A stretch of DNA of 64,000 nt, from the sequence record NC_070991.1; one strand, given 5' to 3'. The position numbers and the translations under genes were made by a program. The number at the start of each line of letters is the position of its first letter. Position 1 is the stretch's first letter. A model generated the notes under the pieces. The model was not told the origin of the DNA, searched no databases, and saw only the letters and a list, made by a program, of their open reading frames with translations. Origin of the DNA: Escherichia phage vB_EcoP_WFI101126. This document shows positions 23,482 to 36,125 of this stretch, in pieces.

Positions 23482-23718
23482 TCACTCTGCCAATGCAGGT
23501 ATCTCTAATCTCTTAATTGTGAATGCTTTGTCTGGAAACTTTCGAACTAGCTCCACTGCTTTGCTAATTGCTAAGTTCTCTGTTTCAAAGATACAGAATT
23601 GACCATTCAGCGCGGTAATAGTGGAGCCACCACTGAAGATGGCCCAAGATTTATAATAACCACGAACGCTCATAACCCACCTTAGTGCGTATGCATCCAG
23701 TTTAGTCCAATCTGACAA
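23482..23718 (-). CDS. hypothetical protein
   Basis: ORF track. Confidence 0.3.
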   Translation of the reverse strand: MSDWTKLDAYALRWVMSVRGYYKSWAIFSGGSTITALNGQFCIFETENLAISKAVELVRKFPDKAFTIKRLEIPALAE

Positions 23719-25526
23719 TCAGAAGCCAGAGGACATTCCATGTTCAAATATTCACCCGCTTTCTTAACACAAAGCTCAGTGTGTTCTTTGAGTTTCTGTA
23801 CATCATTACGATTCACTGAGAATTGGCCCTCATCGTGCATATCAATTACCTTAGCACAACGAACCCTATCCCTCTCAATCCACTTGTTTAGGAACATCAT
23901 AGCATATTTCATAACAACAGCACCAGCACATTGCAGGAGAGTGTTAAGTGCTTTATGAACCATAACCTTACCAGTGGCATCTCGTCTCATTGTAATCTTA
24001 CGACCATCAACACCAATCAAGTATCCTTGAGCAGCTTTCTCTGTCATACGATCAATGAGGATTGCAATACATGGGTTCTCTGCCAAGAAACGTGCTCGCA
24101 TCACTGAACCTTCGTCAGCCCCACCACCTACAATTGAACCAAGCTTAGCGTCTCCAGCACCGTAGTTGAATGCATAGATAAACGTTTTAGCATTGTCACG
24201 AGTAGGAAGACCAGCAAGTTTCTGGTTGTGGGAGTGGATATCGCCTTCAAGGAGGATATCACGATACATAATAGCAGAAGCTAAACCACGTTCTGCCAGA
24301 GCTTTCTTAGCTGGATTGTTTTCTTCTATCGCTTCAGCAAGCATATCCCTACACTCTTTAATGAGGTAGTGAGCGAGCATACGAAGCTCAAGTCCAGAAC
24401 CATCATACCCTAAGAATACTTCTTTACCAGCGGGTATGTAATATTTGTAAGCACCTACAGGTTTGTCTTTCTTCCCCGGCTTACCTTTCTCGTAAATTAC
24501 GTTAGTACCTTTTCGTATATAACAACCATCAGGAACAACGTTAGTAATAACGAAAGGACGAGAATGATCACTGTCTGAGTTATAGTCAGACTCAAACAGA
24601 CTGCGACACTCGTGACCAAACAGACCACGGGAGGGAATATTAACCACGATACGATGTTTGAATCGAAAAGTCGGAGTAGCGCAGCTGTTAGCTTCTGCCG
24701 AAAGTTTACCATCTTCGCGTTCCTTTGCTATGAGTCCACTGATAAGACCTAGCCTGTGAGCCGCTACAACGCGTCTCTTAAGCAAACTTCCGACACTCCC
24801 TAGCTCACCCCCTAGCCCCTCTTCAAGAGTCTCCTCGAGGTTTGTAGGAGCTGTAGGCCACTTGTTTGATGTGGCTAGTGCTTTCTTAATCTCATCAAAC
24901 GTTACAGGATTACGACGATTAGGGTTCAATCCCAAACCAAATACGTAAGCCTTCATATAGTTCTTAGTCTTAAACCTGAAATGCTTTTCTAAGAACTTCT
25001 TAATATCAGCGTCAACCATCTCGGCTGTCTGCTTCTGTTTAGCATTGCCTCGCATCCAAGCAGTGTACCATGCTTGATACGTTCCATACTTTCTCATATC
25101 TTTCTTAATTTCGAAAGTATTCCAAGGCTTCTTAGATACATTAAACTCTGGAGGAAGAAAGCCCTCATCCATAAGAGCTTCTTTAACTCGAGCATCTTTC
25201 GATGGGTCAAAGTCTACGTATTCAACACAGGTGAAAGCTCCACCAATATCTTCTCTTTTCAGCCCAACCCTATCACAATAGGCTTGAGGCCACTTCTGTA
25301 AAGCTCCAGACTTCTTAAACGGCTTCATATAAGTAGAGCCGTCTAATCTCATCTTAGGTAAGAGAGGAATCAACTCTCTGTCAATATTAACAATAATCTC
25401 TTTAAGGAGGTGAACATACCACCGAGCATTTCTTCGGTTGAAACTCACTCCGTGCTTTGCTTGCTTAGAGATTATATCAGCGACAGTCATCTCTGTCAAA
25501 AATGGAAGAGCGTCCGGGTTGCTCAC
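23682..25526 (-). CDS. DNA polymerase, family A polymerase domain (no exonuclease domain)
   Basis: Motif A YDGSGLELR and motif B-like FNYGAGDAKLG of Pol I family; 614 aa. Confidence 0.85.
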   Translation of the reverse strand: MSNPDALPFLTEMTVADIISKQAKHGVSFNRRNARWYVHLLKEIIVNIDRELIPLLPKMRLDGSTYMKPFKKSGALQKWPQAYCDRVGLKREDIGGAFTCVEYVDFDPSKDARVKEALMDEGFLPPEFNVSKKPWNTFEIKKDMRKYGTYQAWYTAWMRGNAKQKQTAEMVDADIKKFLEKHFRFKTKNYMKAYVFGLGLNPNRRNPVTFDEIKKALATSNKWPTAPTNLEETLEEGLGGELGSVGSLLKRRVVAAHRLGLISGLIAKEREDGKLSAEANSCATPTFRFKHRIVVNIPSRGLFGHECRSLFESDYNSDSDHSRPFVITNVVPDGCYIRKGTNVIYEKGKPGKKDKPVGAYKYYIPAGKEVFLGYDGSGLELRMLAHYLIKECRDMLAEAIEENNPAKKALAERGLASAIMYRDILLEGDIHSHNQKLAGLPTRDNAKTFIYAFNYGAGDAKLGSIVGGGADEGSVMRARFLAENPCIAILIDRMTEKAAQGYLIGVDGRKITMRRDATGKVMVHKALNTLLQCAGAVVMKYAMMFLNKWIERDRVRCAKVIDMHDEGQFSVNRNDVQKLKEHTELCVKKAGEYLNMECPLASDCQIGLNWMHTH

Positions 25527-25542
25527 TTTATACTCCTTTGAA

Positions 25543-25965
25543 TTATTGGTAAAGTAAATCTGTAAATGCTTGGTTATCTTCTACCACACCTAACATGGTA
25601 GCTTCATCACTATAAGCTCTAACCGACCCATTGACAACTGTCCAAGGAGGGGGCGGAGGAGGTATATGTGTAGCTCTGGCTTCACGAGGTTGTTCTCGTA
25701 CCAGATGAGCCACAACTCTCTGATTAGCAACCTCTTCCCTTTCTCGAATAGCTCTTTGAATGTAAGCCAGCTTCATACCCCAAGCTTCTTCAAATTCTTG
25801 AGGGTGCTTATCGCTGATAACCACATACTGACGTTCAGGAATACCAGAGCGAATCTCTGATAATAATTCATGGAACAGGTCCAGTTCGTGCTCAGTGAGA
25901 TTCATTTCAATATCATCCCACTTGAGAACTAGGAAACGGTTTTGGTGTCTAGCTGGTAATGGCAT
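25543..25965 (-). CDS. hypothetical protein
   Basis: ORF track; PPPPPPW tract. Confidence 0.35.
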   Translation of the reverse strand: MPLPARHQNRFLVLKWDDIEMNLTEHELDLFHELLSEIRSGIPERQYVVISDKHPQEFEEAWGMKLAYIQRAIREREEVANQRVVAHLVREQPREARATHIPPPPPPWTVVNGSVRAYSDEATMLGVVEDNQAFTDLLYQ

Positions 25966-25966
25966 C

Positions 25967-34246: not shown

Positions 34247-34255
34247 TCTTATTCC

Positions 34256-35566
34256 TTAGTTATTTGTTTCCATGTCAAAAGAGATTCCACGACCCGCTTC
34301 ATCGGCAAACCGATCATCGAGACTGTGACTGACAGTATCAGCAAGTTCTTCATGAGAGGGAATGTCAAGACTACCTACCACATCTTGAGCAGAAGCTTCA
34401 TCAGTCCAGATAACACGAGAAGGGGCGTTGATATCACCAACAGCAAAACCCTGACCAGAGAACTGGTGACGGCTAACAGTCAAACCATTTGATCGACTAC
34501 GAGAAGGACTAGACATCCATCTCTCCATAGAATCACTTGTAATGCCAAGAGCTTCTTCAAAAGATGTTCTACGAGAAGAGCTTAGATTTCGTGCTTCATT
34601 TGCTCGGCGTCTTGTAGGGGCTACAAACACCCCTTCGATTGCGTTATGACGACTAGGCTCTTCTTCTCTACCAAGCAAATCACCACCCGTGTTAGTCGTT
34701 AAATTTGTCAACCCTTCAGACCAATACGCATAAATTTGACCAGACCCATGAAGACTTGACATAATCTGAATCTCTTCATAGGGGATTCCAAAGAATCGAC
34801 TCATGTCACGGTTAACGCAATACTGAGCACTTGTTGTATCCTCAATAAGAGAAACCTGACCTAATCCATTAACCAGATGACTAACTGGCTGAGGTGTAGG
34901 AAGGTATCGAGTTTGGGCCATATATTGATATGCAACAGATGGAGCTGAGAATCTTAACACTTGTGAATTAGGCCACTTTTTGTGAACGTATCTGATTTCA
35001 CGACTAGAAACAACCACAGGGCAAGGAGCGGTCATAGCTAAATACCCATGAGGGGTCATGAATAAGTTGTCAAGAGTCATCGCACCACGGCACATCATAG
35101 GAAAATTATCCAGAACCTCTTCAATAGAAGTAGGATAATTAAACATGAATTGGATACGAACCCCATTCCACTGAAACTCAATAATATCAGTGAATGTTAA
35201 TTGAGAACCCCCAGCATAGGACTCGTTTGTAGCCTCAGCAAGAAGAGATGAATACTCAATATCTTGTGACTCAAGCCATTCCTTCACGTTACTTTCAATT
35301 TCTCTTCCAAGAGCTTGCCAATGATCAGTTGATGTGAAAGTATTTTGGGTTCTTGGTGTTTGTCCTCTGACAATAAAGATATCAATGTCATGTGGAGCTG
35401 TGTTGTTAAGGACAGCATCACGAACAGCCCCACCAGTAATGATGGGACAGATACCGTCTGGAATCAAGTTGTTGTTAATCAACTGTTCAATGAAGTGACG
35501 ACCAACAGTGATATCAGGTTGTTGAGCAACCTTATCTTCAATTCGGTTAATCGGGATAACAATCAT
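34256..35566 (-). CDS. nucleotidyltransferase with tRNA CCA-adding/poly(A) polymerase head motif and Ser/Arg-rich C-terminal tail
   Basis: ITGGAVRDAVLNNTAPHDIDIFIV matches GGxVRD...DxD of class II tRNA nucleotidyltransferases; C-terminal 150 aa low complexity. Confidence 0.55.
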   Translation of the reverse strand: MIVIPINRIEDKVAQQPDITVGRHFIEQLINNNLIPDGICPIITGGAVRDAVLNNTAPHDIDIFIVRGQTPRTQNTFTSTDHWQALGREIESNVKEWLESQDIEYSSLLAEATNESYAGGSQLTFTDIIEFQWNGVRIQFMFNYPTSIEEVLDNFPMMCRGAMTLDNLFMTPHGYLAMTAPCPVVVSSREIRYVHKKWPNSQVLRFSAPSVAYQYMAQTRYLPTPQPVSHLVNGLGQVSLIEDTTSAQYCVNRDMSRFFGIPYEEIQIMSSLHGSGQIYAYWSEGLTNLTTNTGGDLLGREEEPSRHNAIEGVFVAPTRRRANEARNLSSSRRTSFEEALGITSDSMERWMSSPSRSRSNGLTVSRHQFSGQGFAVGDINAPSRVIWTDEASAQDVVGSLDIPSHEELADTVSHSLDDRFADEAGRGISFDMETNN

Positions 35567-35567
35567 T

Positions 35568-36125
35568 TTACATTTTCCAATATAATGAAGGTGGGTCGTA
35601 AGGGTCAAATCCTGTGAGTTCACACAAGAAAAGATAAACCTTAACAGTTAAGTTAACGTCCTGTTCACAATAAGTAAACATATCTTCAGTGAAAGCATCC
35701 CATGCTTCCTCTTGCTCGCCATAATCGCCCTTAAGTTCTCCTAAGAACTCACCCCACTGCTTCAAACCATGACCTCTTGGGCCACGTCTAGGGTCGCCTT
35801 TCGGATACTCAGGACTGTCACCAATACGGTCAGGTTTAAGATATCGACTAAGACATAAAGTGTCAAAGACGTTAAAACGATATTCAATTAGATTAGGATA
35901 CATTTTCTTCAGAGCACAAAGGTCGAAGTCAATAATATTATGACCCACGAGCACATCTGCTTCTGTCAGTTTACGAATCCCGTCTTCGATTTGGTGAGGC
36001 CGATAGCCCCACCTTTCACCAGTTTCAACATCGAAGATATAAATACACCATACTTTAGTTATGTCATCGTACAGTGCATTACTCTCGATATCGAATGCAA
36101 ACACTTTCTTCTTTTTCTTTACCAC
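35568..36125 (-). CDS. stand-alone 3'-5' exonuclease (DEDD family, proofreading-like)
   Basis: Exo I FDIES, Exo II HNIIDFD, Exo III YCEQD motifs. Confidence 0.7.

Follow-up and report, generated by a model that had tools for sequence, protein, structure and literature searches.

Separate genes for a T7-like family A DNA polymerase and its predicted proofreading exonuclease in the Kuravirus vB_EcoP_WFI101126

Introduction

The DNA polymerase of phage T7, gp5, is one polypeptide, whereas in the genome of Escherichia phage vB_EcoP_WFI101126 (NC_070991.1) the corresponding enzyme is encoded as two. Within the stretch of 64,000 nucleotides analyzed here, which is referred to as the window, an open reading frame (ORF) of 614 amino acids (23682..25526, minus strand) encodes a T7-like family A DNA polymerase catalytic subunit composed of the polymerase domain only, and a second ORF of 185 amino acids (35568..36125, minus strand) encodes a predicted 3'-5' proofreading exonuclease subunit. 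The questions raised by this locus are how the two genes came to lie 10 kb apart and whether their products still act as one enzyme. A first-pass annotation had suggested that proofreading may be supplied in trans, as with DnaQ of E. coli, had called the arrangement unusual for a T7-like enzyme, and had named gene fission or an undetected intron or intein as its possible origin. The explanation that we favor, and consider likely, is that the two proteins are the halves of a T7 gp5-type polymerase separated by an old fission, with the exonuclease bound non-covalently as a proofreading subunit.

The window is a Kuravirus genome (phiEco32-like; subfamily Gordonclarkvirinae). Its polymerase gene has its closest record in Escherichia phage Ptacy1532 (99.9% identity) and is 95-97% identical in nucleotides to that of many phiEco32-like E. 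coli podophages (about 97% in the case of ES17 and SU10); the exonuclease gene shows 95.7% nucleotide identity to phiEco32. The pair represents the same genes as gp53 (polymerase) and gp74 (exonuclease) of phiEco32, a different isolate in which nothing of substance differs: gp53 has the same length of 1845 nt, and the gene lengths, the gene order and the overlap with the primase-helicase gene also agree. The split is genuine and was correctly read, but it has already been annotated and published for phiEco32-like phages. The RefSeq entry of phiEco32 notes that gp53 'lacks 5'-3' and 3'-5' exonuclease domains' and names gp74 'DNA polymerase exonuclease subunit', which 'contains 3'-5' exonuclease domain'; the same name is borne by the PHROGs families phrog_38876 and phrog_403, both of which match the 185-residue protein. 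In 2012 the proofreading exonuclease and the polymerase were described as separate genes in every phage of the LUZ24 group and in phiEco32 (PMC3517423), and in 2023 the separation was stated to be general in kuraviruses and in the related phages 7-11, Privateer, Vp_R1, and BUCT695 (PMC9965538). In the same year the exonuclease/polymerase split of T7-like cyanophages was analyzed and the complex was predicted to persist (PMC10201439). The split is thus an ordinary kuravirus feature which carries little weight as a discovery, being present in RefSeq and in the genome papers of 2012 and 2023, and it is unusual relative to T7 only, as within the phiEco32-like group it is the rule.

Results

The 614-residue protein carries an intact polymerase domain and no exonuclease domain. 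Its ORF starts at a GTG codon with AAGGAG upstream, its Pfam match to DNA_pol_A (PF00476; 81.8 bits, cut-off 34.3) is restricted to residues 361-611, and it covers positions 836-1233 of the PHROGs profile phrog_17, 'DNA polymerase'. The protein aligns with T7 gp5 from about residue 205 to residue 704; in the column-wise alignment (A1) residues 19-29 (ISKQAKHGVSF) pair with the T7 gp5 stretch LAKQERNGFPF, which lies just past T7 residue 206 in the numbering of BLASTP. Motif A (D375 in DGSGLELR), motif B (R443/K447/Y451 in RDNAKTFIYAFNYG, with Y455-G456 completing the RxxxKxxxYxxxYG pattern) and motif C (H564-D565-E566) are all intact and fall into alignment columns invariant with T7 gp5 and its fused relatives. 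With no more than about 18 residues ahead of the first conserved helix of the polymerase domain, there is no room for an exonuclease domain, and none, active or degenerate, was found in the 614-residue chain upon alignment to T7 gp5 and the fused relatives. These alignments rule out a degenerate exonuclease remnant, and the initial description of the protein as a polymerase without an exonuclease domain stands.

A chain of this kind could be read as an exonuclease-free enzyme of low fidelity or of the repair type, to which the small exonuclease is unconnected. This would agree with the missing domain and with the closest GenBank record, in which the gene is named 'DNA polymerase theta'. That label, however, is an automatic name, and the strongest match of the polymerase among PDB sequences in a phmmer search is T7 gp5 (E 1.3e-32; Klenow fragment, 1e-6), which is also the strongest match to the predicted fold of the joined chain described below. 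Furthermore, the 614-residue protein is the only DNA polymerase among the ORFs scanned and is set in a T7-type replication module, and the exonuclease is under strong constraint in every relative. We therefore regard a low-fidelity or repair enzyme as very improbable.

The 185-residue protein is a homologue of the T7 gp5 N-terminal domain and is of the DEDDy type, with the motifs Exo I (D12/E14, DxE), Exo II (N63...D68, GHNIIDFD) and Exo III (Y152...D156, YxxxD) reported by the first-pass annotation. It matches the Pfam domain DNA_pol_A_exo1 (PF01612) with 34.6 bits (cut-off 23.6), BLASTP aligns it with residues 5-196 of T7 gp5 at 33% identity (E 2e-17), and in a search of all PDB sequences the matches were T7 gp5 chains only, at residues 3-178; its relation to polymerase proofreading domains is thereby established. 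A Pfam scan with E up to 0.01 returned PF01612 and a sub-threshold RNase_H_2 match only, and no other exonuclease family, DnaQ-type included. The DnaQ or Pol III epsilon family carries a His in Exo III (DEDDh). Membership of the DnaQ family was rejected for the 185-residue protein, which lacks a DnaQ-type Pfam match and has a Tyr (Y152) in Exo III. The comparison with DnaQ holds as a functional analogy, given that Pol III alpha (DnaE) and epsilon (DnaQ) of E. coli are likewise separate polymerase and exonuclease polypeptides that would act together, but it does not extend to family: the exonuclease is PolA-type, and DnaE belongs to family C, which is unrelated to the family A of the window polymerase. 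Across 55 stand-alone homologues, down to 32% identity, the catalytic carboxylates D12, E14, D68, and D156 show no variation and the conservation of Y152 is 90% or higher, which argues that the nuclease has been kept active.

Placed end to end (799 residues), the exonuclease and the polymerase align collinearly, at 36-44% identity, with T7 gp5 as well as eight single-chain relatives (618-679 residues), and the break between them falls into the short interdomain linker. The same is seen on phrog_17, where the exonuclease covers positions 667-826, directly ahead of and contiguous with the polymerase part. Prediction of the covalently joined chain by AlphaFold2, with an alignment of fused relatives, stand-alone exonucleases, and stand-alone polymerases, gave a T7-like fold with a mean pLDDT of 92.7 and a pTM of 0.87; confidence was low at residues 181-190 only, that is, at the junction. 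In a Foldseek search of the PDB with the joined chain, T7 gp5 chains took all of ranks 1-27; the alignments span the whole chain, the target-normalised TM values lie at 0.69-0.80, and the best rmsd is 4.8 A (5ikn, apo T7 replisome). Although this is a weak test, the model fits an exonuclease docked on the polymerase as in T7 gp5, with the new termini loose.

The order primase-helicase, exonuclease (overlapping or abutting), variable cargo, and polymerase is common to three phage groups, exemplified by phiEco32 (gp75, gp74, gp53; a gap of about 10 kb with 20 annotated genes), Pseudomonas phage LUZ24 (gp24, gp25, gp34/36; about 2.3 kb) and Proteus phage P59 (Privateervirus; gp087, gp086, gp072; about 4.5 kb). 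In T7, gene 5 follows gene 4. The break point lies at one and the same alignment position in all three lineages, and in a tree of the polymerase domain built by neighbour joining (110 taxa and 436 columns, with 61 fused relatives and T7 as outgroups) the exonuclease-less polymerases form a single clade with 200/200 bootstraps. All of the exonuclease homologues identified in a word-indexed database search (59/59) are stand-alone proteins of 101-247 residues, and the nearest polymerase clusters, roughly 110, are without an exonuclease Pfam domain. The exonuclease and the exonuclease-less polymerase co-occur: in the phage collection 96 records carry the former (at least 60% identity) and 97 the latter (at least 80%), and more than 70 genomes, sequenced independently, show the identical arrangement. 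As the break point, the gene order, and the polymerase clade are each common to the kuravirus, Privateervirus, and LUZ24-like groups, the simplest account of these sequences would be that their shared ancestor underwent a single old fission, after which the gap grew. Among the origins initially proposed gene fission is thus the best supported, by the collinearity, the break in the linker, the predicted fold, and the single polymerase clade.

The idea that a single polypeptide is still made, be it by intron splicing, trans-splicing of a split intein or recoding, or else that the separation is an assembly artefact, could draw on the mobile insertions in the polymerase genes of relatives: in LUZ24 an endonuclease VII ORF lies between the polymerase parts, and in Escherichia phage FH3 the gene is in pieces. 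In the window, however, the 10,041 nt from the exonuclease stop to the polymerase start, both genes being on the same strand, encode about 20 ordinary conserved proteins on that strand, including those of thyX, phoH, dCTP deaminase, and thioredoxin. The unmatched terminal residues number only about 12 and 9, far too few for the halves of a split intein, the two genes are each provided with a start codon and a ribosome-binding site, and the arrangement recurs in the more than 70 genomes. As the whole T7 gp5 chain is covered by the two proteins with no spare residues, and with conventional genes in between, intron, intein, and recoding were rejected; we give this alternative, including the artefact, practically no chance.

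Directly upstream of the exonuclease is the gene of a T7 gp4-like primase-helicase of 596 residues (36119..37909, minus strand; DnaB_C, Toprim-like, and phrog_239 matches). The GTG start of the exonuclease and the stop of the primase-helicase overlap by 7 nt, in agreement with the adjacency noted at first, and GGAG is located 7 nt upstream of the GTG; the exonuclease is probably translationally coupled to the primase-helicase. On the other side, the cargo block (25543..35566, minus strand) encodes PhoH-like, ThyX, thioredoxin, Dps-like, and dCTP deaminase proteins, an ORF with a ligase Ia domain and a nucleotidyltransferase of 436 residues, and corresponds to the 20 annotated genes phi32_54 to phi32_73 of phiEco32. 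The region is a leftward-transcribed cluster for replication and nucleotide metabolism, the counterpart of which in phiEco32 belongs to the middle expression class (PMC8948821).

The middle/late promoter consensus of the phiEco32 gp36 sigma factor is TAATGTATA (PMC8948821). An exact copy is found at 27394..27402 on the minus strand, between the exonuclease and the polymerase and 1.9 kb upstream of the latter, and the other exact copies in the window are at 11188-11196 (plus), 20981-20989 (minus), and 21053-21061 (plus); none of 100 shuffles reached four. Three of them (11188, 20981, and 27394) are each positioned a short way upstream of an ORF of matching orientation and are therefore probably the middle/late promoters of this isolate. 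Two intergenic terminator-like hairpins, pattern matches only, are also located between the two genes on the minus strand (31899..31927 and 26710-26735), with the total of such sites in the scan showing no excess over the shuffled expectation. With a candidate promoter and terminator-like hairpins in between, the polymerase could be transcribed without the exonuclease.

These features bear on the possibility that the exonuclease is a free nuclease forming no stable complex with the polymerase, which either edits in trans by dissociation and rebinding or serves repair, recombination or the degradation of host or primer DNA; in a variant, recruitment might be through the primase-helicase and not the polymerase. 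The distance of 10 kb, with its middle-promoter motif and hairpins, and the probable coupling of the exonuclease to the primase-helicase instead of the polymerase would all agree with such a nuclease, as would the literature, in which we found no biochemical evidence of a complex. Against it stand the PDB sequence matches, all of which are to the proofreading domain of T7 gp5, the end point of the exonuclease, which coincides exactly with the start of the polymerase in the fused enzyme, the T7 arrangement into which the joined chain folds, and the co-occurrence with an exonuclease-less polymerase in three phage groups. In addition, family A polymerases are said to require the exonuclease domain structurally, for their stability (Czernecki et al., PMC10201439). 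On balance a free nuclease is unlikely.

The polymerases of the split lineages bear insertions which the fused T7-like relatives are without, as seen in the alignment. A helical thumb insertion follows helix H1 (polymerase residues ~130-235, window about 24822-25139, minus strand) and is shorter in the LUZ24-like enzymes; a palm insertion precedes motif A (residues ~318-368), and a further helical insertion after motif A (residues ~390-420) is confined to the kuravirus and Privateer-like set. Predicted alone, the thumb insertion (residues 120-245) gave a confident helical subdomain (pLDDT 84.9), for which Foldseek returned no significant match among solved structures (all E above 1). It holds a second motif resembling helix H1, with FDPSKDARVKEAL at residue 106 and TFDEIKKAL at residue 209. 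Compared with T7 gp5, the loop that corresponds to the T7 thioredoxin-binding loop is strongly shortened. The window phage has its own thioredoxin gene (31036..31362, minus strand; Pfam Thioredoxin, E 3.8e-13), whereas T7 gp5 works with the thioredoxin of the host; by analogy with that pair, the phage thioredoxin is a possible processivity partner of the polymerase, an idea put forward for Privateer (PMC7881722).

Two further features concern the polymerase gene itself. A perfect sigma-70 consensus (TTGACA, 17 nt, TATAAT, with an extended TG) is present at 25471-25499 on the minus strand, in polymerase codons 10-19; it is the sole perfect site in the 64-kb window, and three of 100 shuffles yield one. 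The site is identical in phiEco32 and FH3, and its -35 element is not conserved in a Suseptimavirus relative; as a promoter it is unproven. The polymerase gene of the window is uninterrupted. That of Escherichia phage FH3 (OR886155; L004 1501-3952, P0073-P0076) is broken into a piece of 573 residues, an inserted ORF of 131 residues and a piece of 51 residues, and N-terminal polymerase pieces of 449-457 residues (77-88% identity) were found in further contigs. These interruptions in some kuraviruses look like insertions of mobile introns or homing endonucleases.

With respect to other replication functions, a separate exonuclease of 272 residues is encoded at 16818..17636 on the minus strand (phrog_107 'exonuclease', E 2e-64); its match to Pfam 5_3_exonuc_N is weak, at 26.4 bits below the cut-off of 34.3, and it may supply the 5'-3' (FEN-type) activity usual in Pol I-type enzymes. 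In kuraviruses, as described for phage YF01, the 5'-3' exonuclease is encoded separately (PMC9965538). The C-terminal tail of the primase-helicase (36119-36240, minus strand) is acidic and ends in W. The tail of T7 gp4 is also acidic, is Phe-terminated and binds gp5, a parallel which suggests a T7-like contact between helicase and polymerase.

Several observations were made on the remaining genes of the interval, all on the minus strand. The nucleotidyltransferase of 436 residues (phrog_12715; 34256-35566) starts 2 nt past the exonuclease stop and has a sub-threshold Pfam match to the poly(A) polymerase head domain; Ser and Arg are abundant in its C-terminal half, and there was no significant match among PDB sequences. 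The ORF of 107 residues at 29039-29362 consists of the Ia domain of an NAD+-dependent DNA ligase alone (Pfam Nlig-Ia, E 3e-33), without an adenylation or OB domain, and its phiEco32 equivalent is annotated as 'DNA ligase'. Three small ORFs of 65-69 residues are arranged in tandem (32894-33103, 33103-33312, and 33312-33509) with a fourth copy 2 kb off (30830-31039); the four are paralogue-like, with a common central 'T/N-R-x-x-A-R-x-x-K-K' and a C-terminal Y. The neighbouring ORFs 26129-26413 and 26415-26669 (94 and 84 residues) are also paralogous, both ending in '...L(M/I)PFPKG' and having the core 'TART(H/N)V(M/I)LR...GKF(I/L)SY' in common. In the window as a whole the sign of the GC skew flips at about 16000, where rightward late (structural) genes give way to leftward middle/early genes.

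Discussion

In the scenario that we favor, an old fission would have cut a T7 gp5-type family A gene at the linker between exonuclease and polymerase. The N-terminal half, the DEDDy 3'-5' exonuclease, would have stayed beside the primase-helicase gene, and the C-terminal half, the polymerase, would have stayed downstream on the same strand and been pushed 10 kb off by nucleotide-metabolism and other cargo. The 185-residue exonuclease would then bind the 614-residue polymerase non-covalently, through the surface which forms the intramolecular interface of T7 gp5, and the rebuilt two-subunit proofreading replicase would work with the gp4-like primase-helicase. From the results above we infer both the physical association of the two proteins and the proofreading activity. 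Given the invariant carboxylates of the exonuclease and the structural need of family A polymerases for this domain (PMC10201439), a stable two-subunit enzyme is the most likely outcome. A published precedent is that of the S-SBP1-like cyanophages, for which the separately encoded exonuclease and polymerase were modelled by AlphaFold2 as a complex that can be superposed on a fused relative (PMC10201439).

Some points weigh against this scenario. Literature searches found no experiment on binding or editing for a kuravirus, a LUZ24-like phage or any natural split PolA. The exonuclease-domain tree, with 126 columns too short for a firm answer, backs a single stand-alone clade weakly (56/200 bootstraps). 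The T7 gp5 structures long predate AlphaFold2 and are presumably in its training data; with a joined chain and with fused homologues in the alignment, the T7-like docking of the model is therefore partly built in. A control alignment free of fused sequences, made with MAFFT, misaligned the exonuclease rows (P0001 fell from 97% to 48% identity) and was not used. Finally, given the promoter motif and the two hairpins between the genes, equimolar expression of exonuclease and polymerase is not guaranteed.

The last point leads to the view that the split is no neutral relic. The phage might set the ratio of proofreading subunit to polymerase, the exonuclease being made with the primase-helicase and the polymerase from its own middle promoter downstream of the terminator-like hairpins, in which case replication fidelity could change during infection; alternatively, the exonuclease might be delivered to the fork through the helicase. 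The thumb and palm insertions might be adaptations for holding the detached exonuclease or a thioredoxin encoded by the phage. We consider such a function of the split quite unlikely.

The two proteins can be compared with three known systems. T7 gp5 is the closest solved structure for both halves, has the same catalytic motifs, and has the same type of partner, a gp4-like primase-helicase encoded just upstream; apart from being a single chain, it differs from the window polymerase by the three extra insertions of the latter (one in the thumb following H1, one in the palm ahead of motif A, and one past motif A). The LUZ24-like phages (Bruynoghevirus) have the same fission with the same break point, and their polymerases belong to the same clade. 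As in the window, the LUZ24 gene gp25, 'DNA polymerase exonuclease subunit', is overlapped by the primase-helicase gene and has the polymerase downstream, and the same amidoligase, GATase, and gamma-glutamyl cyclotransferase genes are found upstream. They differ in the gap, which in LUZ24 is just 2.3 kb compared with 10 kb here, and in polymerases of about 545 residues, with a shorter thumb insertion and none after motif A. An intron additionally breaks up the LUZ24 polymerase (PMC3517423), and the record has the endonuclease VII ORF annotated at the interruption. The S-SBP1-like cyanophages also encode the exonuclease and polymerase of a T7-like PolA as separate genes and have a shortened thioredoxin-binding region, as in the window, but the two genes of S-SBP1 adjoin and overlap, a recent +1 frameshift having created them (PMC10201439). 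A frameshift split of this type was rejected for the window pair, which has 10,041 nt and about 20 genes in between. The fission seen here looks much older than that of S-SBP1 and is common to several phage groups; the two are probably of independent origin. For none of the natural split PolA enzymes was biochemical work found in our literature searches.

The modest evolutionary addition made by this work is that the split of the three phage groups looks single and old, and distinct from the recent fission into adjacent genes in cyanophages. The kuravirus pair also provides a natural test case for the ability of a family A polymerase to function with a proofreading subunit that can detach, and a T7-like polymerase free of the exonuclease, with an editor that can be separated, could interest enzyme engineers.

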